A DNA stretch of 10,658 nucleotides from Myxococcota bacterium (lineage in GTDB: Bacteria; Myxococcota; XYA12-FULL-58-9; JABJBS01): the NCBI GenBank assembly GCA_036339465.1, contig JAYZAY010000093.1:1-10658 (forward strand), given 5' to 3'. The notes under the pieces are model-generated. The model was not told the origin of the DNA and searched no databases. It saw only the letters and a list, made by a program, of their open reading frames with translations. The translations under genes were made by a program, and so were the position numbers. The first letter of the stretch is position 1; each line of letters starts with the position of its first letter. Positions 34-10,588 of the stretch are shown one piece after another.

Positions 34-1485
34 TTATTTTGGCAGCTCACTGAATTCCCCCCATGAATCAAAAACAAACAATTTCGTTTCGACACACAAC
101 GAGCCCCCCCCTTTTTCACAAATTATATTCCCATAAACGTCAGTCACCTCACACGTAAACTTAATAAGACTTTTATCATGGTCATCCGCAGAAATGGTGG
201 TCTGAGTATCGCCATAGAATAGAGTATTCACGCCGTAGGGACGGCCTGCATTAATCTGAATATCCTTGCCTACGGGGTCAACAATGGCTTCCCCACTGGA
301 AACGTTCTGTTCGCATTTTAGGTTGATGACACCTGCATTTTCTGAATAAGCGAGAAACTGCGTTGTTCCAACTTGCTTCGACACCACATCCCCAGAATCA
401 GCAACAATGATAACCTCCGATTCTAGAATGATGTTTCCAAATTCGTCCTTGGCAATGCAATTAATCAACATATCTTCACCAGCAATGGCAGTTTTGGCCC
501 CACCAACATCCGTTTCTAGAGCCACAACAGATCCCGGATTCACATGATAACTCTCCCATAGAGAAGCCCGCGTCTCGGTACCAACAACGACACATCTAGC
601 ATTGTAATCCCGAGAGGCTTCATGCTGAAAAGAAAAAGACCACTTACCCGTGGTGGGATCTCTTCCCTCAGCCGTCAGAAGCTCGGGACCATAAGGGTAA
701 AACTCAAGCCTAACTTCAATCTCTTCGACTCCGAGGTGTCCTCCGGAAGCACTGCACTGAACATTATTGGATACACCCGCCACCATTACGGCGCTTTCCA
801 GCTCAATAGCGACACTGAAGCTTCGGTCAACAGTAATCGGCATCACCTCCCGAGATTTACCACCTAAAATGTCCTTGGCGATAATCGCCAATTGTGGGTA
901 ACCGTATTCACTTTGGATGTCTTGTATCGCCACAGTCGCTTCGTACAAATCGCTAATATCCTCTCTTGCTCTTAGCCCTTGTTGGACAACGCATAGTCTA
1001 AGAGAACACAGCCAGCGAGATCCCTCACCACAGTCGGCAGCAGTATTACAAGTTCCCCCGGTCAAAACCTCAAGGCTCAAACTGTCCTTATCTAACCCAT
1101 CTTCATCGGTAATCTCCACGCGAACAACGAAGTCGGTAGTATACAACTCATAGGGGGTTTCAGGAGCGAGAAAGGAAATGTCGGGCCCAGTCCCAAGATG
1201 GTTCTGTGTAGGAGGTGAATCTCCTGACTCGTCGACTGTGGGAGACTCCTCCGAACCCTGACTATTGTTGTCTGAGGATGGAGTACCGACATCGGTGCTC
1301 TCACTATCTCCCCACTCGGGAAAATCTTCACCTTCACTTTGTTCATCCGTATTTGTGCAATCCCACCCCTCATAACAACTATCCTGAGTGGATTTATCGC
1401 CTCCCAAACACCCAGCCATAAATCCCATCATTAGGAATAAGCAAAGCAGATGAAGAGTCCTCACAATTTTACGTCGCTTATTCAA
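34..1485 (-). CDS. Putative lipoprotein with Ig-like domains and Cys-rich inserts (483 aa)
   Basis: TTG start with GGAGG 8 nt upstream, overlapping the upstream stop by 8 bp. Basic n-region (NKRRK), hydrophobic h-region and lipobox-like MAG-C26. An acidic Ser/Asp/Glu linker (aa ~44-99) precedes a beta-rich Ig-like domain (aa ~100-220). Then come about 2.5 repeats of AG..V.C...D.(F/Y)GN...C...(V/I).(P/A)G. Confidence 0.8.
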   Translation of the reverse strand: MNKRRKIVRTLHLLCLFLMMGFMAGCLGGDKSTQDSCYEGWDCTNTDEQSEGEDFPEWGDSESTDVGTPSSDNNSQGSEESPTVDESGDSPPTQNHLGTGPDISFLAPETPYELYTTDFVVRVEITDEDGLDKDSLSLEVLTGGTCNTAADCGEGSRWLCSLRLCVVQQGLRAREDISDLYEATVAIQDIQSEYGYPQLAIIAKDILGGKSREVMPITVDRSFSVAIELESAVMVAGVSNNVQCSASGGHLGVEEIEVRLEFYPYGPELLTAEGRDPTTGKWSFSFQHEASRDYNARCVVVGTETRASLWESYHVNPGSVVALETDVGGAKTAIAGEDMLINCIAKDEFGNIILESEVIIVADSGDVVSKQVGTTQFLAYSENAGVINLKCEQNVSSGEAIVDPVGKDIQINAGRPYGVNTLFYGDTQTTISADDHDKSLIKFTCEVTDVYGNIICEKGGGSLCVETKLFVFDSWGEFSELPK

Positions 1486-4400
1486 AGGCCAGTCCTCCCA
1501 TCAAGCGAAGTCCATCGGGAAGTCTCTTCACACTAAAACCATCGAGCTTCAAACGACCATCCACTGGAGCCTCTTCAGTGCCCACTCCCGTCAGAGGAAT
1601 TGTGGGTATGGGAATATTTTGTAGAAATCCACCAAGAACCCGAGGCAAAAGGAGACCCAACGCCTTCTCAAATAGGTCCGAAACCTCGTCTTTGTGCCCT
1701 TCTCCCCCAAATTCCCAAACTTCAACCCATACCTTCGGGGAATCCAAGAATCTCATTTCCAAACCCGAGAAATCGCTGCTGGGTTCAATTATCACGCCTC
1801 CCTTAAAGCTAACCAAGAGTTGAAAAGGAACCGACTCTAAATCCGAATTGTCACAGTCATACGATTGTGAGCTCAAGGCCATCGATGCCGCATGGGAGAG
1901 ATTTAGATTCCCCGACAACATAATATCCCCCCAGCCCAATTCAATGCCCGAAGATTGCTTCCCCGGCATTAGAAGAGGTGGAAGAAGAGACTCAAAATTC
2001 AACGTAATAATATCTTTAAACTCCAAAGGTCGTAGGCAGCCCACATCGGTAGAAGGTGTAAGCTCAACTGAAGATTCTGAACTCGCTTCGCCTGTGGTCG
2101 AAAGTAAACTGCCAAGATTGTCAATTTTGAGGGTACCCTGATGCCATAGTGCCCACAGGGCTTGATTCACCAAATTGTCCATCAACATAACCCCAAAGGG
2201 ATAGACGTTGCTAAAACTTGCCCCTTGAGCTTGCCGATAAATCGAGCCTGGGGCCGAGTTCGGGACGTGTTCTGCCTTGTGACCCGGAGAAATTTGAGCG
2301 TCAAAAGATATATTGAGTCCCGTTGATTCAATCACTTCAAAAGCGCCACCTCTCAAGGCTGTGGCAAGTAGTAACTCACCACTCAAAGGCTCAGGTAATG
2401 CAAAGCTGGTCCCAAATGAAAAACCCGAAAGAAACGTTTTGGATAGTTCAGGCATCAAGTCGGCAATAACATTAATCAACGCTTCCTGAATAGGAGCCTC
2501 CAATGCAGCTTTGACCGACTCAAAAACTCCCTCAAAGAGTTCATTAAAAGTAGGATTATTTTGAAACACCAGATTTAAATCGACGACACTCCATTTAAGA
2601 AGGATAGAAGAAGTCACCAATGAAAGATACGATTCGTATTCACCGGTCAAAATCCCTGCGTCCATAATCTCGTTGGTGTTTAACTCTAATTCCCCCTGAA
2701 AACTTAGCCCCTGAACAATGATGGTGCCATCCACAACTTCAGGAAGTATCGGTTGACCGTCGAACATTAAGCAGGCGTGGGCTTCGACATTGACCTCCAA
2801 TTTCCCCAGGCCAATCCCAAAATGGATTCGGCCATCATCTTCTACGGTAAAACTATCCACCGACACCCCTGTGAGGCTTGCATCCGCCCTAGTCGGATCT
2901 GTAGGGTCCATCTTTACCGCAACAACAGCCCCGGAAAGTCCACTGGTTTCATTGCAGTTTTTAATCTTTGCCTTGTCTTCTGCGGTCACGGGAAACAAGT
3001 CCAACTCGTCCCCTGAAGATTCCTGACCGATTTGCCCTGTAATCAACGTCCCTATATCGGCACCTTGCAACAAATACTGAAGGATCGACGCAATATCATC
3101 AAGCTCCCCAAAGGAATCCGATTCTTTTCTTTTGCCATCATCTAAACCTGGTTGATTCAATCGAACTGACAACCCCTTAGGAATTTCCCCATCTGCTAGG
3201 GGAGAAAGACTATCCGGTTCTAGGCCTGGGGTTAGAATAGACGCACTTCGAAAATCAGCACTTCGCAACAAAGGATAACGGCGGCTGGTTTTGTTACCAC
3301 AAATGTCGGAAGCACTAACAGAAATCAAATTGAAACCCCATCTGGAATCATGGCCCGACACCAAATCCAGACCCCACCCATTCTCGTTTTCGGTTTGGCC
3401 CTGAAGCACTACACTCGACTGCCGAACTTCATCGAGCCACACACTTCCGATTGCACTTTCACCATCTTCAACGCGAACTTTATATCCGATATTGCATCCA
3501 CCGCTTCCGCTCCCACTGGAAGAACACCCACTGCTACCATCGGAAGAACCCTGTCTTACATAAATCCCGGTTCGTCTACCATCGAGGGTCGCTAAATCGG
3601 GTAAATTGCTTGCCTCCAAATCGCCAACAGATTCCAGTAATATATTAGGAGGACTTGAGTCTACAGTAATCAGTTGTTCATAGGGTCCAACATTTTGGGT
3701 CTGGGCATCAAGAGGAATTTCAATCCTAATGGTGTATTCGCCTGGATGCGTAAAATACAAACCCGTATCTGGGTGACCACTCACACCTATGGTTTCATGA
3801 CTAAGGGCGCTCTCGCATGTTGAAGGACCGTTGCCTTGCTTGACACACCATTGATAATCGGGAGCTTCGATGTAATTTGAAAATGAATCGTAAGCAAAAA
3901 CCGTCAGCGGAAGACGCGCTCCTTGCTTATAGCAATCGAAATCCAATAAATCGACTCGCACCGAATCAATTTTCCCGGGTTTAACCTCCAGAATCTCCGG
4001 ACTCTCATCTCCAGCGATCTGGCCCGGTACAAAGCAAAAAACATAGTAAGACCCACTCCGAACAATGCGAATCTCATGGCCACTAACGACAGCGCCGGTA
4101 AAGACAGGGTGTGACCAATCCGCAGCAAGCACCGACACTTCGGTGTCGACATCAGCGATCTCATTATCGAATAGATCCTTAACCCTGCATGTCACCGTAA
4201 CAGGCTCTCCTGCGTGCCGTAGGGATTTGTCGAGACTGGTCACTGTTTGGTACGGTTCACCTGGTTGAACGGTTATCCTTAAAGGTGAAAGGTCGGTAAT
4301 AACCGGCTGGGTCTCATCGACTTGCACTGCAGCCTCAACAAGTTCGCTTACCTTGTATCCAAACCGACAACCGACTAAGAATTCTCCCCTTTGAGTTCCA

Positions 4401-5047
4401 TGAACTTTAAAGAGCCCTCCCGTTTTGGAGGAGAAACGCAATTTTGAACTCAACACTTTTTCGTCGACGCCAACGTCTTCATAAACCTCAAAGTCCAAAT
4501 CGGAATACGTTCCCATTAGTCCCATATTTGAAATTTCATTCCCAAAAACATCGAATCCTAAACAATGGATGTCTACATCAATACCCGCACTGACCATTGT
4601 CTTTTCTATTTTGGTCTCGATGGAATGAAGAGGCGCGGGAACAACGGTTATCTCCAACGGGCTCGGGTCAGCGATGGCCTCTGACTTGATACGACAAGTG
4701 GCAGAATAATTACCCATCTTCTTTGGCGTAAAGGTGGCCACAACACCGTTCTGAACAAAATCCTCTACAGTTGGACTTAATTCTACCAACACCTCTACAT
4801 CTGCGTTTTCCGACTCATTGGATGTGACAACACAAACGACGGTTACAAGGGTTCCTGCCTCAATTTTTTCCTTCTCAGAATAGGTTTCTACACTATAAAC
4901 AACTTCAACGACGCTCTCTTCAGAAGGTTGGTCAGGTACCAATCCCCGAGATCCACAACTCAAAGGACCGATTAACAAAAAGAACGTAAACGCTAGGCTA
5001 AAGCGACGACTCAGGCCGATCCAACGGAGTTGTATTCCATTAACCAT
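1478..5047 (-). CDS. Large putative lipoprotein: tandem Ig-like repeats plus C-terminal BPI/LBP-like (TULIP) lipid-binding region (1189 aa)
   Basis: Long ORF with ATG start and a signal peptide ending PLS-C31-G (non-canonical lipobox). Four Ig-like repeats at aa ~50-465 and a fifth Big-like domain at aa ~466-593. From aa ~623 to the end it has the motifs PKGLSVRLNQPGLD, PFGVMLMDNLVNQALWALWHQG and LLLPRVLGGFLQNIPIP, resembling BPI/LBP. The CDS is certain; the domain call is by eye. Confidence 0.75.
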   Translation of the reverse strand: MVNGIQLRWIGLSRRFSLAFTFFLLIGPLSCGSRGLVPDQPSEESVVEVVYSVETYSEKEKIEAGTLVTVVCVVTSNESENADVEVLVELSPTVEDFVQNGVVATFTPKKMGNYSATCRIKSEAIADPSPLEITVVPAPLHSIETKIEKTMVSAGIDVDIHCLGFDVFGNEISNMGLMGTYSDLDFEVYEDVGVDEKVLSSKLRFSSKTGGLFKVHGTQRGEFLVGCRFGYKVSELVEAAVQVDETQPVITDLSPLRITVQPGEPYQTVTSLDKSLRHAGEPVTVTCRVKDLFDNEIADVDTEVSVLAADWSHPVFTGAVVSGHEIRIVRSGSYYVFCFVPGQIAGDESPEILEVKPGKIDSVRVDLLDFDCYKQGARLPLTVFAYDSFSNYIEAPDYQWCVKQGNGPSTCESALSHETIGVSGHPDTGLYFTHPGEYTIRIEIPLDAQTQNVGPYEQLITVDSSPPNILLESVGDLEASNLPDLATLDGRRTGIYVRQGSSDGSSGCSSSGSGSGGCNIGYKVRVEDGESAIGSVWLDEVRQSSVVLQGQTENENGWGLDLVSGHDSRWGFNLISVSASDICGNKTSRRYPLLRSADFRSASILTPGLEPDSLSPLADGEIPKGLSVRLNQPGLDDGKRKESDSFGELDDIASILQYLLQGADIGTLITGQIGQESSGDELDLFPVTAEDKAKIKNCNETSGLSGAVVAVKMDPTDPTRADASLTGVSVDSFTVEDDGRIHFGIGLGKLEVNVEAHACLMFDGQPILPEVVDGTIIVQGLSFQGELELNTNEIMDAGILTGEYESYLSLVTSSILLKWSVVDLNLVFQNNPTFNELFEGVFESVKAALEAPIQEALINVIADLMPELSKTFLSGFSFGTSFALPEPLSGELLLATALRGGAFEVIESTGLNISFDAQISPGHKAEHVPNSAPGSIYRQAQGASFSNVYPFGVMLMDNLVNQALWALWHQGTLKIDNLGSLLSTTGEASSESSVELTPSTDVGCLRPLEFKDIITLNFESLLPPLLMPGKQSSGIELGWGDIMLSGNLNLSHAASMALSSQSYDCDNSDLESVPFQLLVSFKGGVIIEPSSDFSGLEMRFLDSPKVWVEVWEFGGEGHKDEVSDLFEKALGLLLPRVLGGFLQNIPIPTIPLTGVGTEEAPVDGRLKLDGFSVKRLPDGLRLMGGLAFE
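1494..1498 (-). promoter_or_regulatory. Shine-Dalgarno (GGAGG) for the 483-aa gene, embedded in the 3' end of the upstream gene
   Basis: Minus strand reads TGGGAGGACTGGCCT-TTG; GGAGG lies 8 nt before the TTG at 1485. Confidence 0.7.
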
Positions 5048-5199: not shown

Positions 5200-5232
5200 A
5201 AAAAGATGGGCTGATTGTAGTCAACCAACCCA
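5200..5232 (-). terminator. Probable Rho-independent terminator of the acyl-CoA ligase gene
   Basis: Minus strand TGGGTTGGTTG-ACTA-CAATCAGCCCA-TC-TTTTT forms an 11-bp stem with two G-U pairs (valid only in the minus-strand RNA), a 4-nt loop and a U tract. It begins ~30 nt after the stop codon. Confidence 0.65.
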
Positions 5233-5262
5233 CTCATCCTCACAAAATGAGGAGAAGATGTC

Positions 5263-7041
5263 TCAATCTGCGTACATCGCCTCGATTTCAGCTTCGAAGT
5301 GTTCATGAACAATCTTGCGTTTGACCTTTAGGGTTGGAGTCAATTCTCCATCCTCTACACTTAAAGCACGCTTCAAAACACTGAACTTACGAACATGCTC
5401 AACCCGAGCAAATTTATCATTCACCCCGTCGACACCTCGCTGGATATGAGAAAGCAAGAGTGAATTCGCGTGAGCATCTTCCTCCGAAATATCATTCTCT
5501 TTGGAAAAAATAGACATCGCATCAGGGTCCAAACTTATCAGCGCTGAAATATACTTTCGGCGGTCACCAATCAAAACCGCTTCGCCCACCACATCGATAT
5601 TTTTTAGAGCCGACTCAATATTCTTAGGGGTAATATTCTTACCACCTGCAGTGATAATAATATCCTTTTTGCGGCCTGTAATGGAGAGATAACCATCGGA
5701 ATCAAAACTCCCCAGGTCTCCCGAGTGTAGCCAACCATCAATCAAAGTCTCCCCTGAGGTTACCGGATCTTTGTAATATCCAGAAAAAACATTGGGTCCT
5801 CTGACACAGATCTCACCATCATCCGCAATCTTGACCTCAGCCCCAGGCAACGCGGGACCTACGGTTCCATATTTCGTGCGCCCCGGTAGATTAAATGAAG
5901 TCGGTCCAGAACCTTCCGATTGCCCATAAACTTCATGGACAACAAGATCCAACCCAGCAAAAAATTCAAGAACCTCTTTCGCAATAGGCGCCGCACCACT
6001 TACGCAGACCCTTGCTCGCCCCAACCCTAAAGCTGGCTTCAACTTAGAGAAAATCAGTTTGTCGGCTAAAGCATATTGCAAAACCAATAAGCCACTCGGA
6101 TTCTTACCAGCGTTCCTTAGGTCGGTCACCTGATTTGCAACCCCGCGCGCCCATGCCACCAAGTGAGCTTTCGCCCCTTCAGCCCCCTTTAGCTTGTTAT
6201 TGACACCCGCATAAAGCTTCTCCCAAATCCGTGGCACGCCAAAGAAAACTGTGGGTTGAACTTCCTTCATATTATCTGGAACTTTTTCAATGGATTCCGC
6301 AAAATAAACAGCGGAGCCTGCGGTTATAGGCCCGTGAATTGAAAACATTTGTTCTGCGATATGAGATAGTGGTAAATAAGAGAGAGTACAGTCTTGAGAT
6401 CTCAAGGCTACCAGCCCTTGCGCAATTTGGGAAGTCCACGCGAGATTCTTATGGGTCAGCATAACCCCCTTCGGAGGACCGGTGGTACCCGAAGTATAAA
6501 TGAGTGTTGCGGTCTTAGTTTCGTCGAGCTTTTCCACAAGTAAATCGATTTTGGCGTCGTCGACATCTCCTGCCTTTGCCAAAAATTCATCCCAACTCAT
6601 AACCAGTGGGTCATCGATCTTGGGAGCACCTTGCATCATAACCACGTGCTTCAGCTCGGGAAGGTTATCCCGTTGCTCCTTAACCTTTTCCCACTGCCCT
6701 ACATCTTCCAGAACCACCAAAGGTGCTTCAGCATGAGCAATAATATACTGCACCTCCTCAGCCGAACACGTGGTGTAAATGCCAGCCGGAGCACCACCAA
6801 CAACCATATTCGCGATATCCATAATAACCCATTCAGGTCGATTAAATCCCAGGATACAAATTGTCTGCCCTGGTTTAACTCCCAGCGAGCACAAGGACCT
6901 GGCGGCAGTTTTCACCTCGCGGACGTAATTGCGCCAAGAGGTTGGGCGCCATGTACCGCCTGCACGTACATAATACGCCGGAGAATCGGGCCGAATTTTT
7001 GCCTGCTCCATAAATCTTGCTGGGATAGTATCCGCTGGCAT
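5263..7041 (-). CDS. fadD: Long-chain-fatty-acid--CoA ligase (AMP-dependent synthetase, FadD15/ACSBG-like type)
   Basis: ANL-superfamily motifs: YTSGTTGPPKG (P-loop), SYLPLSHIAE, EVYGQSE, GWLHSGDLG, GRKKDIIITAGGKNITP and ELTPTLKVKR. GGAGG lies 5 nt upstream of the ATG. Confidence 0.93.
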   Translation of the reverse strand: MPADTIPARFMEQAKIRPDSPAYYVRAGGTWRPTSWRNYVREVKTAARSLCSLGVKPGQTICILGFNRPEWVIMDIANMVVGGAPAGIYTTCSAEEVQYIIAHAEAPLVVLEDVGQWEKVKEQRDNLPELKHVVMMQGAPKIDDPLVMSWDEFLAKAGDVDDAKIDLLVEKLDETKTATLIYTSGTTGPPKGVMLTHKNLAWTSQIAQGLVALRSQDCTLSYLPLSHIAEQMFSIHGPITAGSAVYFAESIEKVPDNMKEVQPTVFFGVPRIWEKLYAGVNNKLKGAEGAKAHLVAWARGVANQVTDLRNAGKNPSGLLVLQYALADKLIFSKLKPALGLGRARVCVSGAAPIAKEVLEFFAGLDLVVHEVYGQSEGSGPTSFNLPGRTKYGTVGPALPGAEVKIADDGEICVRGPNVFSGYYKDPVTSGETLIDGWLHSGDLGSFDSDGYLSITGRKKDIIITAGGKNITPKNIESALKNIDVVGEAVLIGDRRKYISALISLDPDAMSIFSKENDISEEDAHANSLLLSHIQRGVDGVNDKFARVEHVRKFSVLKRALSVEDGELTPTLKVKRKIVHEHFEAEIEAMYAD

Positions 7042-7223: not shown

Positions 7224-8297
7224 ATGGGCGACCGAGACCGACATCCTGGCGATGAGGAACGGCTCGATGACTTCGAAACCGATTTTGAAGACACCGACGA
7301 CGACCTCGATTCCGACGACGACCTCGATTCCGACGACGACCTCGATTCCGACGACGACCTCGATTCCGACGACGACCTCGATTCCGACGACGACCTCGAT
7401 TCCGACGACGATGACGTCGAAGAAGATCAAGTTGCGAATGACACAGAGCATGCAGGGATCATCCTCAAAACTCCTGAAGTTCATATCGGTGGGGATGACG
7501 AATATCCCGAAGATGGATTTACCGCTCCCGCACCTGAACCACGGCGTCGTTCGCCTGAAGAAGAGGAAGCGCGAACGAAAGCCAGAGCGCGGGCTGAAAA
7601 AAATCGCCTTAAAAAAATTGCCACCCACGACGCTCCTTCACCAACTGAGCCCCGATCCAAATCCAAACGCAGCGATAACCGTAAAGGCGGCAACCGACGC
7701 GAAGAGGCTCCCAAAGCTGAGCCCGCGCCAATTCCTACACGACACTATGCAACTCGAAACGAGTGGGGAAATATGTCCGACGCACCTCGCAGTGCCACTA
7801 GGAGTCCATTACTGTGGATAGCATTGACTCTTCTACTCATAACAGTTTTGGGAATGGGCGGCGTCATCACTTATCTGCTGGTGAGTGGAGATAACAGCGG
7901 AGATGAAATTTCACAACGTCGGCGAGGAAAATCAAAGTTACCCCCAGAATTATCTAAAGCATTTAATCAAGGATTCAATCCCGATTACGAAGATGAAGAC
8001 AATCAGCGTAGACCTGAACCTCCAAGTCTTAAGGCTCAAGAAAGTCCATTGGCCAATATCGATGACGACAACATGCGCCTCATTCACAGTAGGATTGGAG
8101 CCATCCGGAAAGAACTCAGAACACTGGACCGAAACAAAGCGAGGCTCGAAGAAGCAATCAATGAAATAGAAGATGTGCTATTAGATGCTGCAGAGGTGAA
8201 CACCAACAACCGCCGAACCCGCCGAGACTCTAGAAAAACTGACCGCAACGAAAAACGAAACTCTAGAGGCAATAGCCGAAATACACGTAGGAGGTAG
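7224..8297 (+). CDS. Hypothetical single-pass membrane protein: acidic disordered N-terminus, TM helix, coiled coil, Arg-rich tail (357 aa)
   Basis: (DDDLDS)x6 repeat; TM segment LLWIALTLLLITVLGMGGVITYLLV (aa 196-220); heptad pattern at aa ~284-322; Arg/Asn-rich aa 330-357. No clear SD, so the start is uncertain. Confidence 0.8.
   Translation: MGDRDRHPGDEERLDDFETDFEDTDDDLDSDDDLDSDDDLDSDDDLDSDDDLDSDDDLDSDDDDVEEDQVANDTEHAGIILKTPEVHIGGDDEYPEDGFTAPAPEPRRRSPEEEEARTKARARAEKNRLKKIATHDAPSPTEPRSKSKRSDNRKGGNRREEAPKAEPAPIPTRHYATRNEWGNMSDAPRSATRSPLLWIALTLLLITVLGMGGVITYLLVSGDNSGDEISQRRRGKSKLPPELSKAFNQGFNPDYEDEDNQRRPEPPSLKAQESPLANIDDDNMRLIHSRIGAIRKELRTLDRNKARLEEAINEIEDVLLDAAEVNTNNRRTRRDSRKTDRNEKRNSRGNSRNTRRR
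7294..7411 (+). repeat. Perfect 18-bp coding tandem repeat CCGACGACGACCTCGATT, 6 copies plus 10 bp
   Basis: Identical units start at 7294, 7312, 7330, 7348, 7366 and 7384, with a partial unit at 7402-7411. Encodes DDDLDS. Confidence 0.97.
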
Positions 8298-8359: not shown

Positions 8360-10588
8360 ATGAGCAGACAACTTCCAGACATCATAAAAGACATGGCTCC
8401 TTCAACCGAAGCCATCCAGCAGGCTTTACTCATCGATGAAGCGATCACCCAAACCGAATGCCCGCTTGACTCGCTGGCCCTCTACGATACGGATTGGACC
8501 GACCCTGCCTTACAACTTGGTTGCCTCAAATTTTTGAGATTATCTCATAAGTACTACCCGCCCCTCGACAACGCTTCCAAGATTCTGGCTCAACTATTGC
8601 CCCAGCTCAGGGAAAGCTATCTCAAAGAATGGATATACACGGTCTATGAATTAAGAATTCAGGTCCCCAAAAAAATCATAAAACAACTCATAGTGATCGA
8701 ACACCCCGAAATAAGGAGCAGCTTAACATTCCTGCTGTCTAAACAAGACTGGCCGGGTAGCAGAGAATATCTTGCATCACTCTGCGAATCCGAAAGTGTC
8801 ATGGTTTCTGACTGGGCCAAATACCATCTAAAAAAACGCGACCTCCGCACTGAAAATTATGTTTCTCAGAGCACAGAAGAAGAAGAAGAAGAAGAAAGTG
8901 AAAATGAGTTACTCGACAATTTCTTTTCCGCCGCACTTAAGCGCTCTAAACGACAAGTTTCTGAGGCCATCCGCGAAGAGCTTCGAGATAACGGCGTCGG
9001 TAACATCATTATCAAAACAGCAGGTGCCTGCAAGCTCCCATCATTGTACGCCCCTATATGGTGGAATCAATGGTCATCAGAAGCCTCACAGACAACAATG
9101 GAAACAGCCCTTCGAAACTCTTTTTGGGATCACAAGGAAGCAACAACTGAGATAGCAGAAAAGTTAACCTCACCAGAACTCGGACAGGCACACAGGCAGG
9201 AGTTACTATTTATCTTGTTACGCCGGCCTGAGCAATACATCTCAGACTTGGCGCAGTCATGGATGAACTCAAAACACCCCATACTAAGGAGCCAGGGGGC
9301 AGTTATTTCACTCTTCCATGGTGGCCCCCGCTTCCCTGGAAAACACGCCAATATGAAAATTATTTGCGATCGATTAAGATTTGGAGAAGTGTTGACTGCG
9401 GCCTCCCTGGTGCCTTTTCTCGCAAAAATATCACCCTCAATTCTAACTCAAGCGCTCGACAATTTCCGGACTCATCAAGCTCCTTTGGTAACTTGGAATC
9501 TAAAATCGGTGATTCATCGGTGGGGCCGACTTCCTCCTGAGCACCAAGTACTCAGATGCCTTCACACCCCTACCCATAGCACTCGGATCATTGCCTGTAT
9601 GGAATTCGCAGAAACCATCGATGAAATGTTCCTAGCCGACGAATCGGAGGATGGGAGCGCTCTGAAGTTTAATTCAGAGTTCACTTTCAGAGAATCAACA
9701 AAAGTAGAATCTTTGGATTATGTGGGCACAGGGTCAGCGAAGCTGGACCCCAAGAAAAAGAAATTAGTTCAAAGTAAGTATGTCTCTCCCCAAAAACCTT
9801 TCTGGCAACATCAATTCGACAAATTAGCCAGAAGATATTCATCGAGTAGCATTTTCGGATTTGGATTTATTTTCTGCCTAGGAATTGCACTTCTAGGTGC
9901 TTTCACCTTCCATCTCATTGAGCAATCCATCAGCCCAAAACCCAGTGAGCAAGTATTTATTAAGTCCGAAGAGATAGCCCAAATAGAAGAGACAAAGCCC
10001 GACCTTCTGGTTGACCCTGCACTTCGTACCAACGGGATGTATTCGGCGCAACGAGTAAGCCTCGTTGCGAAATTATCCCGTGATTCCATACTACAAGTGC
10101 TACTGAAACAATCCGACCGCTGGAGTCTATATAATCGAATCGATGTGGTGGATTCAGCTGCCATCATTGCCAAAATTGAAGTACACCAAATCAAACCGGA
10201 ATCCACCTACCTGGAAGCGATGAATTACCTCCTCGACGATCTTGAAGTAGAGATCTCAGAAGACCGACATGAAAAAGTTGCCAAATTATTAATCAGTCTA
10301 ACGGCTTACAATTCCAAAGTCGGTGATTGGGCAACAACCAAAACTCTTGATAGAATCGATAAAATCCCATACCACAATGATAGCTTAGTATTGAAGATGG
10401 CAGAGATTAGTTCCGAATTTCGGACAGACTTACGAAAAGCCGGCATGCAATCAAAATATCACCCAGCCTTACAAAAGTTCAAAAAATCGACATTGCATCA
10501 AATGGTCGAGATACTTGACCATGGATGGGTTCGCAAAAAAGAAAAACTATTGGGAGGCTACCTCACGCACTTGAGTTCAATGAAATAA
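8360..10588 (+). CDS. Hypothetical membrane protein with degenerate HEAT-like helical repeats and one TM helix (742 aa)
   Basis: Long, Leu-rich, helical-looking ORF. HEAT-like segments include EHPEIRSSLTFLL, YLASLCESESVMVSDWAKYHL and SWMNSKHPILRSQGAVISL. TM segment IFGFGFIFCLGIALLGAFTFHLI (aa 498-520) is preceded by basic residues. Confidence 0.75.
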   Translation: MSRQLPDIIKDMAPSTEAIQQALLIDEAITQTECPLDSLALYDTDWTDPALQLGCLKFLRLSHKYYPPLDNASKILAQLLPQLRESYLKEWIYTVYELRIQVPKKIIKQLIVIEHPEIRSSLTFLLSKQDWPGSREYLASLCESESVMVSDWAKYHLKKRDLRTENYVSQSTEEEEEEESENELLDNFFSAALKRSKRQVSEAIREELRDNGVGNIIIKTAGACKLPSLYAPIWWNQWSSEASQTTMETALRNSFWDHKEATTEIAEKLTSPELGQAHRQELLFILLRRPEQYISDLAQSWMNSKHPILRSQGAVISLFHGGPRFPGKHANMKIICDRLRFGEVLTAASLVPFLAKISPSILTQALDNFRTHQAPLVTWNLKSVIHRWGRLPPEHQVLRCLHTPTHSTRIIACMEFAETIDEMFLADESEDGSALKFNSEFTFRESTKVESLDYVGTGSAKLDPKKKKLVQSKYVSPQKPFWQHQFDKLARRYSSSSIFGFGFIFCLGIALLGAFTFHLIEQSISPKPSEQVFIKSEEIAQIEETKPDLLVDPALRTNGMYSAQRVSLVAKLSRDSILQVLLKQSDRWSLYNRIDVVDSAAIIAKIEVHQIKPESTYLEAMNYLLDDLEVEISEDRHEKVAKLLISLTAYNSKVGDWATTKTLDRIDKIPYHNDSLVLKMAEISSEFRTDLRKAGMQSKYHPALQKFKKSTLHQMVEILDHGWVRKKEKLLGGYLTHLSSMK
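8876..8896 (+). repeat. (GAA)7 trinucleotide repeat encoding poly-Glu
   Basis: Seven consecutive in-frame GAA codons. Confidence 0.9.

Follow-up and report, generated by a model that had tools for sequence, protein, structure and literature searches.

A BPI-like double TULIP predicted at the tip of an Ig-like stalk in a lipoprotein-type protein of an uncultured marine Myxococcota bacterium

Double-TULIP lipid carriers were long regarded as a eukaryotic invention, and within them the BPI/LBP binders of lipopolysaccharide (LPS) use a cationic N-terminal barrel for this ligand. BPI, LBP and CETP bind lipids (PMC5507252). Among characterised bacterial systems, TipA/TipB of Bdellovibrio bacteriovorus comes closest: as described in the preprint, TipA (Bd2538) is an exported BPI-like double TULIP with an adaptor, TipB, it carries lipids in its lumen, and it binds and destabilises bilayers (bioRxiv 10.1101/2025.09.09.675085). 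The same text mentions relatives in the AlphaFold database that are fused to beta-rich domains, and the examples in its Fig. EV2 could include relatives of the family described here. We analysed a gene for a 1189-residue protein on contig JAYZAY010000093.1 of a Myxococcota bacterium, the whole of which (10,658 bases) is called the window below; its source bin comprises 4.17 Mb in 102 contigs and is 92.8% complete. In this protein, a C-terminal module resembling BPI is predicted to follow a lipoprotein-type signal, five immunoglobulin-like (Ig-like) domains and a linker, in the following layout:

1478..5047, minus strand: whole gene, 1189 amino acids (aa) plus stop (open-reading-frame list, translation)
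4955..5047, minus strand: signal peptide and lipobox-like PLSC, aa 1-31, with Cys31 as the presumed lipidated residue (sequence)
4640..4897, minus strand: Ig-like beta-sandwich domain 1, aa 51-136, approximate (stalk model made with AlphaFold2, AF2; Foldseek tandem-Ig matches)
4361..4630, minus strand: Ig-like domain 2, aa 140-229, approximate (AF2 stalk model, Foldseek)
3980..4282, minus strand: Ig-like domain 3, aa 256-356, approximate (AF2 stalk model, Foldseek)
3662..3970, minus strand: Ig-like domain 4, aa 360-462, approximate (AF2 stalk model, Foldseek)
3260..3646, minus strand: beta-sandwich domain 5, aa 468-596, immediately ahead of the TULIP module (alignment A6, model)
3182..3259, minus strand: linker of low model confidence that joins stalk and module, aa 597-622 (pLDDT <50 at stalk-model residues 570-591)
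2414..3181, minus strand: predicted N-terminal TULIP barrel, aa 623-878, with N-terminal strand, helix A, long sheet and 43-residue helix B (AF2 model, profile alignment to BPI 75-203, single-TULIP superpositions)
2198..2413, minus strand: predicted central sheet and inter-barrel connecting region, aa 879-950, approximate (model strands 259-299, then a poorly structured stretch)
1481..2197, minus strand: predicted C-terminal TULIP barrel, aa 951-1189 (AF2 model, superpositions of YceB and the E-Syt2 SMP domain, sub-threshold alignment to BPI 399-429, alignments A2 and A5)

The gene showed zero insertions or deletions against contigs from four marine metagenome runs, and several studies of marine and seawater metagenomes contributed runs containing DNA near-identical to the window; there was no RNA run among the 20 runs listed with window DNA.

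Predicted fold of the module and its kinship to BPI

We modelled the module (aa 623-1189; module numbering plus 622 gives protein numbering) with template-free AF2 from alignment A1, which comprised the module and 72 of the 106 hits of the family search given below, relatives' stalks included, and left out short or partial hits as well as P0070, a repeat-only match. The model had a mean pLDDT of 81.8 and a pTM of 0.81. Its first half consists of a strand (4-9), a helix (30-47), a sheet (86-197), a long helix (210-252) and a further sheet (259-299), and its second half of a strand and helix (329-347), a sheet (391-491), a helix (497-522) and terminal strands (527-566). In the model, this order is that of the BPI topology, which reproduced the order that a first-pass annotation, made from the DNA sequence alone, had inferred.

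When the model was used as the Foldseek query against the PDB, the best match was BPI (1bp1, E 1.5e-16, TM 0.62 on the target), followed by CETP (E 2.5e-15) and LBP (E 3.2e-14); the top four entries were all BPI, LBP or CETP, each over its whole length, and after them came clostridial OrfX/P47, SPLUNC1, JHBP, Takeout and YceB. Model residues 1-567 superposed on BPI 2-456 with both barrels in register across 432 residues, at an identity of just 12-14%. The single TULIPs JHBP, Der f 7, SPLUNC1 and Takeout superposed on the N-terminal half (model 6-254/289), YceB on the C-terminal half (279-563) and the SMP domain of E-Syt2 on residues 333-525. AF2 and Foldseek both identified two tandem TULIP barrels, each with helix A, a long curved sheet and helix B, plus a central sheet. 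The module is therefore supported, at the level of the model, as a full two-barrel double TULIP of the BPI/LBP/CETP type, with two helix-wrapped beta barrels joined by the central sheet; a hydrophobic lumen within the barrels would follow from this fold. The AlphaFold-plus-Foldseek check that the first-pass annotation had suggested for its double-barrel claim gave the predicted outcome as regards the two tandem barrels.

Profile searches, which use no structure, were run with HMMER against 177,635 distinct PDB sequences (E<=10). The A1 profile returned four rows, namely BPI (6.9e-5 and 9.1e-5), LBP (0.01) and one unrelated row (0.71), and its alignment set BPI 75-203 against the N-barrel sheet and long helix of the family. 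Alignment A5 was restricted to the module and held 14 sequences (the window protein, its two paralogues and relatives' loci, excluding the contig-end-cut loci L004, L009, L011, L020 and L021 and the duplicate L016); its profile found only BPI (0.0017, 0.0019) and LBP (0.2). A second, sub-threshold A5 domain paired BPI 399-429, where the BPI letters include LVLPRVNEKLQKGFPLP, with helix B' of the C-terminal barrel, the helix that contains LLPRVL...IPIP. Homology to a member of the BPI/LBP/CETP family was thus detectable by profile, with the significant match limited to the N barrel. A single-sequence phmmer search of the same PDB sequences gave a chance match only (E 1.8).

The five segments that the first-pass annotation had compared with BPI lie where it placed them (aa 623-636, 834-873, 950-971, 1132-1148 and 1178-1189), and the evidence differs among them. 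Segment 2, the long helix, falls within the profile alignment to BPI 75-203 in both the A1 and the A5 search, and segment 4 within the sub-threshold pairing with BPI 399-429. The likeness of segment 3 was linked to BPI only indirectly, through another family (alignment A7) of large lipoproteins: weak PF02886 matches occurred in 6 of the 301 genomes sampled across the phylum, three of them above the cut-off, and hhalign of A7 against A5 gave a probability of 65% (E 6.1e-5, 71 columns) over helix A' of the C barrel, while the A7 profile itself matched BPI 245-326 (E 0.041). We take this connection as a weak link rather than as proof. The A7 family (loci L039-L044) consists of distant lipoproteins of 700-1150 aa in other Myxococcota that reach or approach the cut-off of Pfam LBP_BPI_CETP_C, and in genome G074 one of its genes shares a contig with a gene of the present family and lies right beside it.

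PF01273 and PF02886 had no match anywhere in the window's whole genome, and this protein stays below the gathering scores of both. Among the best clusters listed by a language-model feature search were eukaryotic BPI-like clusters and a bacterial one in which 57% of the members have PF02886 (scores 0.94 to 0.89), which we use as a lead only. Judged by the profile matches, the resemblance to BPI exceeds chance, and the apparent sequence kinship is weak but specific. Since the Pfam thresholds failed, we call the protein a divergent bacterial relative in the BPI/LBP/CETP superfamily, outside the Pfam families proper.

Stalk, lipoprotein signal and protein family

The stalk (aa 32-622) was modelled with AF2 from alignment A3 (40 sequences), which gave an all-beta structure with a pLDDT of 84.7 and five units of about 90-130 residues each. 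Foldseek returned at least 500 matches at E<=0.001, with tandem-Ig proteins leading, and these included titin I65-I70, Robo, contactins, S-layer proteins and the E. coli adhesin FdeC (4e9l, TM 0.55 on the target); model and matches together place the stalk among tandem Ig-like beta-sandwich folds. On this protein all Pfam Big models remained below cut-off, and a weak ZirS_C match lay at aa 264-306, inside domain 3. Weak Ig-like Pfam matches (Big_1, Big_7, Invasin_D3, Glucodextran_B) were found among the 53 relatives that were scanned, those to Big_7 and Glucodextran_B at the equivalent of domain 5; some of the 53 also bear DUF4215 Cys-rich repeats, EGF_CA, TSP3 or dockerin. Domain 5 shares the motifs VDSTPP, SRWG and D.CGN across the family (alignment A6, 13 members), and in this copy it carries a Gly/Ser-rich insert containing two Cys.

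The N-terminus has a positively charged n-region and a hydrophobic core, and ends in PLSC at Cys31. Its Pro at -3 is non-canonical with respect to [LVI][ASTVI][GAS]C, and lipidation of this protein at Cys31 is therefore graded as probable. Canonical lipoboxes were present in the orthologues of genomes G001, G002 and G003 (LVGC, MVAC and VGAC) and in the C67 paralogue, and a lipobox-like pattern occurred within the first 45 residues in 42 of the 51 full-length representatives (at least 800 aa with a Met start; 51 of 107 representatives). Of the lipid-anchored Ig stalk claimed in the first-pass annotation, the stalk was borne out by the model, as five Ig-like domains; a lipoprotein-type signal is seen in the family and probable in this protein, and the lipid anchor itself is deduced from that signal. 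In 13 of the 42 lipobox-bearing full-length relatives, an R-(S/T)-P-G-like motif stood 2-5 residues past the Cys (CGTRSPG, CNYRSPG; CGSRG in this protein), which might serve in sorting or mark where the first domain begins.

Word-index searches retrieved the protein itself alone when it served as query, and came back empty for the module alignment. When HMMER was run exhaustively over 1.84 billion cluster representatives, it recovered 107 at E<=1e-3 (query included) and 49 at E<=1e-10, and the source names looked up for 10 clusters were 'hypothetical protein' or none. Local re-scoring located the conserved core at module residues ~200-567, with a short N-terminal LNQ..DD also kept in many members; the most conserved motif of the family, DD-LNQ-LW--W-GG, lies in the C-terminal barrel (alignments A2 and A5). 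A search for related loci in public records with a 6-sequence alignment gave 7 loci.

The taxonomic survey of homologues that the first-pass annotation had proposed revealed a family with a patchy spread. The window's genome has three copies, the two other paralogues being 33% and 22% identical to this protein. With the single protein as query, matches occurred in 14 of 41 relatives, including all five of the same taxonomic family, and with the A5 profile in 20 of the 22 genomes of the order and in 44 of the 301 sampled genomes of the phylum (families f10, 12/18; f12, 7/20; f21, 3/40; f17, 0/115). The open frames that contain the matches span ~900-1500 aa; a genome often has several matches, and relatives have up to 7. 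One member lies outside Myxococcota, on a chromosome of a Gemmatimonadota metagenome-assembled genome (L022, CP070722.1; 23% identity, E 2e-9, 667-aa open frame), and hints at occasional transfer or a wider range. In the second TULIP gene of G001 (C182; L012:1419-3074), a Cys-rich insert of ~55 residues occupies a C-barrel loop and has no counterpart in the other 13 modules.

Contrary to the cationic N-terminal barrel of the BPI/LBP subgroup, the module (aa 623-1189) has a pI of 4.29 with 79 D+E against 33 K+R, and its N barrel alone 41 D+E against 15 K+R. The acidity noted in the first-pass annotation extends to the family, as all 14 modules tested had a pI of 4.05-4.65. The family is fast-diverging, multi-copy and acidic.

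Gene neighbourhood

Three features flank or adjoin the gene:

34..1485, minus strand: downstream gene, a 483-aa lipoprotein with lipobox MAGC, paralogous to the stalk only (translation, tblastn to the stalks of relatives' TULIP genes)
5206..5233, minus strand: terminator-like hairpin with a 12-pair stem and a T-run, between the ligase and TULIP genes (consensus scan, pattern match only)
5263..7041, minus strand: upstream neighbour, a FadD-like long-chain fatty-acid--CoA ligase (Pfam AMP-binding E 1.3e-75; NCBIfam FadD11-like)

The downstream gene overlaps the TULIP gene by 8 bases. Its stop, TAA at 34-36, lies 33 bases from the contig end; three other marine runs have contigs with GAA (Glu) at this codon, and one of these contigs extends 108 bases beyond the window start; the frame within the window is open to base 1. 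Because of the GAA in those three runs, the stop may be strain-specific or an end-of-contig error, and the 483-aa stalk-only lipoprotein may correspond to the first part of a longer coding sequence. A second stalk-type gene follows the TULIP gene in the window and in four relatives' contigs, and in G001 the second gene of the pair encodes a full stalk-plus-TULIP protein of 1218 aa.

The ligase adjoins the orthologous TULIP gene in all three same-family loci, where the ligases are 77%, 71% and 64% identical and the TULIP orthologues ~26-28%. Upstream of other TULIP genes, which comprised paralogues and more remote orthologues, it was absent from all 12 regions. On account of this absence and of the terminator-like hairpin between the two genes, we rejected the ligase as a general functional partner.

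On the plus strand, the frame at 7224..8297 (357 aa) contains a perfect 18-base tandem repeat (6.6 copies, 7294-7411) encoding DSDDDL repeats; this protein, which matched no family, begins with an extremely acidic stretch, has a single hydrophobic segment and ends in a very basic tail rich in Arg and Lys. The 742-aa protein of 8360..10588 (plus strand) matched no family except, weakly, a HEAT-repeat-like NCBIfam model (E 3e-4), and has a hydrophobic segment at about aa 505-525; a 21%-identical homologue lies divergent beside the ligase gene at locus L014 of G003. Rfam found no family in the window.

Proposed role, rival readings and known systems

We propose a lipoprotein-type envelope protein whose 567-residue C-terminal double TULIP would be held off the membrane by the five tandem Ig-like domains. 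The barrels would enclose a hydrophobic lumen that takes up lipid, by analogy with BPI, CETP and Bdellovibrio TipA, and this tethered lipid-binding or lipid-transfer head would act on a second membrane or lipid source at a distance of ~20-35 nm from where the protein is anchored. We consider a position on the cell surface most likely, because the orthologues diverge fast beside a well conserved ligase, several paralogues occur per genome and relatives carry extracellular-type modules. Since all modules are strongly acidic, electrostatic LPS capture of the BPI type is unlikely, and uptake or exchange of phospholipid or neutral lipid would be more likely. Taken as a whole, a surface-exposed stalked double TULIP that performs lipid uptake or exchange appears to us somewhat probable.

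Several results weigh against this proposal. Besides the Pro at -3 of the lipobox, Pfam and NCBIfam scans gave no model matching the module, PF01273 and PF02886 reached E<=0.01 in none of the 53 relatives scanned out of the 106 hits, and PF01273 touched only two of the 14 modules, with a best E of 0.043. A profile restricted to the C-terminal core (A2, 14 sequences) had no PDB match, and that of the first 60 module residues (A8) missed BPI and returned one chance row (E 0.68). The likeness of segments 1 and 5 to BPI was upheld by structural superposition only. The first-pass annotation had also described the long helix as amphipathic, which the whole-length test did not support: over the full 43 residues (aa 832-874), the hydrophobic moment at 100 degrees was 0.02, and 97% of shuffles were higher. 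These silent family models, together with a BPI identity of only 12-14%, are what one would expect if the resemblance were a modelling artefact or convergence and the region no TULIP; nevertheless, we hold this to be highly improbable, as profile searches free of structure single out BPI and LBP among 177,635 sequences and the model, made template-free, matches across both barrels in register over 432 residues.

The five-Ig stalk would fit a periplasm-spanning arrangement as well, which also counts against a surface site. The protein could then be a periplasmic envelope-lipid device, anchored in the inner membrane or in the inner leaflet of the outer membrane, with a stalk spanning the periplasm and a TULIP head touching the opposite membrane and moving phospholipid or lipoprotein acyl chains between the cell's own two membranes. 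A lipoprotein signal by itself gives a periplasmic default, and five Ig domains plus a double TULIP of ~14 nm approximate the width of the periplasm (142 A for TipA in the accessible preprint text, where the authors liken the TULIP length to periplasm-spanning transporters; bioRxiv 10.1101/2025.09.09.675085); in E. coli, the single-TULIP protein YceB is a lipoprotein of the outer membrane (PMC5507252). Housekeeping envelope machines, however, are usually single-copy and conserved, whereas here there are three copies, with up to 7 matches in relatives, and orthologues are only 26-28% identical beside a ligase at 64-77%. Moreover, the family was not found in 257 of the 301 sampled phylum genomes, including all 115 of the best-sampled taxonomic family, and relatives carry dockerin, EGF and TSP3 modules; we consider the periplasmic device unlikely. 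Rather less likely still is that the barrels bind a hydrophobic ligand other than membrane lipid (a pigment, isoprenoid or signal, as with JHBP, Takeout and carotene-binding TULIPs), or that the module is mainly an adhesive tip without transfer.

If the surface-exposed lipid carrier that we favour does capture lipids well away from the cell, it would offer a new lipid-scavenging or membrane-attack route in an uncultured marine group, and it would also be of use as an outgroup when the origin of BPI and CETP is traced. A bolder version is an outward-facing, stalk-mounted lipid extractor, in which arrays of fast-evolving BPI-like heads ~30 nm off the surface of uncultured marine Myxococcota would pull lipids from the outer membranes of other cells (prey or kin), feeding on or damaging them, with domain 5, the membrane-proximal conserved sandwich, as a built-in TipB-like opener. 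We regard this version as doubtful; if true, it would make the protein a bacterial, contact-dependent analogue of BPI, the antibacterial protein of animals. TipA supplied one bacterial double-TULIP case, and bacterial BPI-like double TULIPs are already known as a kind; the annotation of this gene is solid and no surprise.

The first-pass annotation knew of no characterised example of this architecture. For the bacterial double TULIP as such, this has to be brought up to date, as TipA is a characterised case in the preprint; for the stalk-tethered lipoprotein form it held, with no characterised example in the searchable literature. A literature search for 'double-TULIP' retrieved the TipA preprint only, searches combining BPI, TULIP and Myxococc* gave nothing, and those on permeability-increasing with myxobacteri* gave nothing relevant. 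TipA was not among the matches in the PDB set that we searched with Foldseek and profiles, and it is compared here by description only. As far as the accessible preprint text describes it, TipA, from a group with many predators, shares with this module the nature of a bacterial BPI-like double TULIP. It is a free protein of ~570 aa, it forms dimers by way of an inserted hairpin, and a small C2-like sandwich encoded separately, TipB, opens it. The present module, in contrast, forms the tip of a lipoprotein-type protein of 1189 aa, and the downstream gene encodes the 483-aa stalk paralogue in place of a separate small beta-sandwich adaptor.

Compared with human BPI (1BP1/1EWF), LBP (4M4D) and CETP (2OBD), to which it is 12-14% identical and below every Pfam threshold, the module is ~110 residues longer, with low-confidence inserts; it is strongly acidic whereas BPI is cationic, and a lipoprotein signal with five Ig-like domains would tether it, whereas those proteins are secreted free. 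Clostridial P47/OrfX1-3 of the neurotoxin gene clusters gave much weaker matches (rmsd 8-13 A), lack a stalk or lipobox and stand in a different gene context. E. coli YceB (DUF1439, 3L6I) has a single barrel on a 10-residue spacer (PMC5507252), against two barrels and a stalk of ~570 residues here. Finally, the Big stalks of the invasin/intimin/FdeC type likewise use tandem Ig-like domains to present a functional tip, with a beta-barrel anchor and a lectin-like adhesin tip in place of the lipobox and the predicted lipid-binding fold of the present protein.

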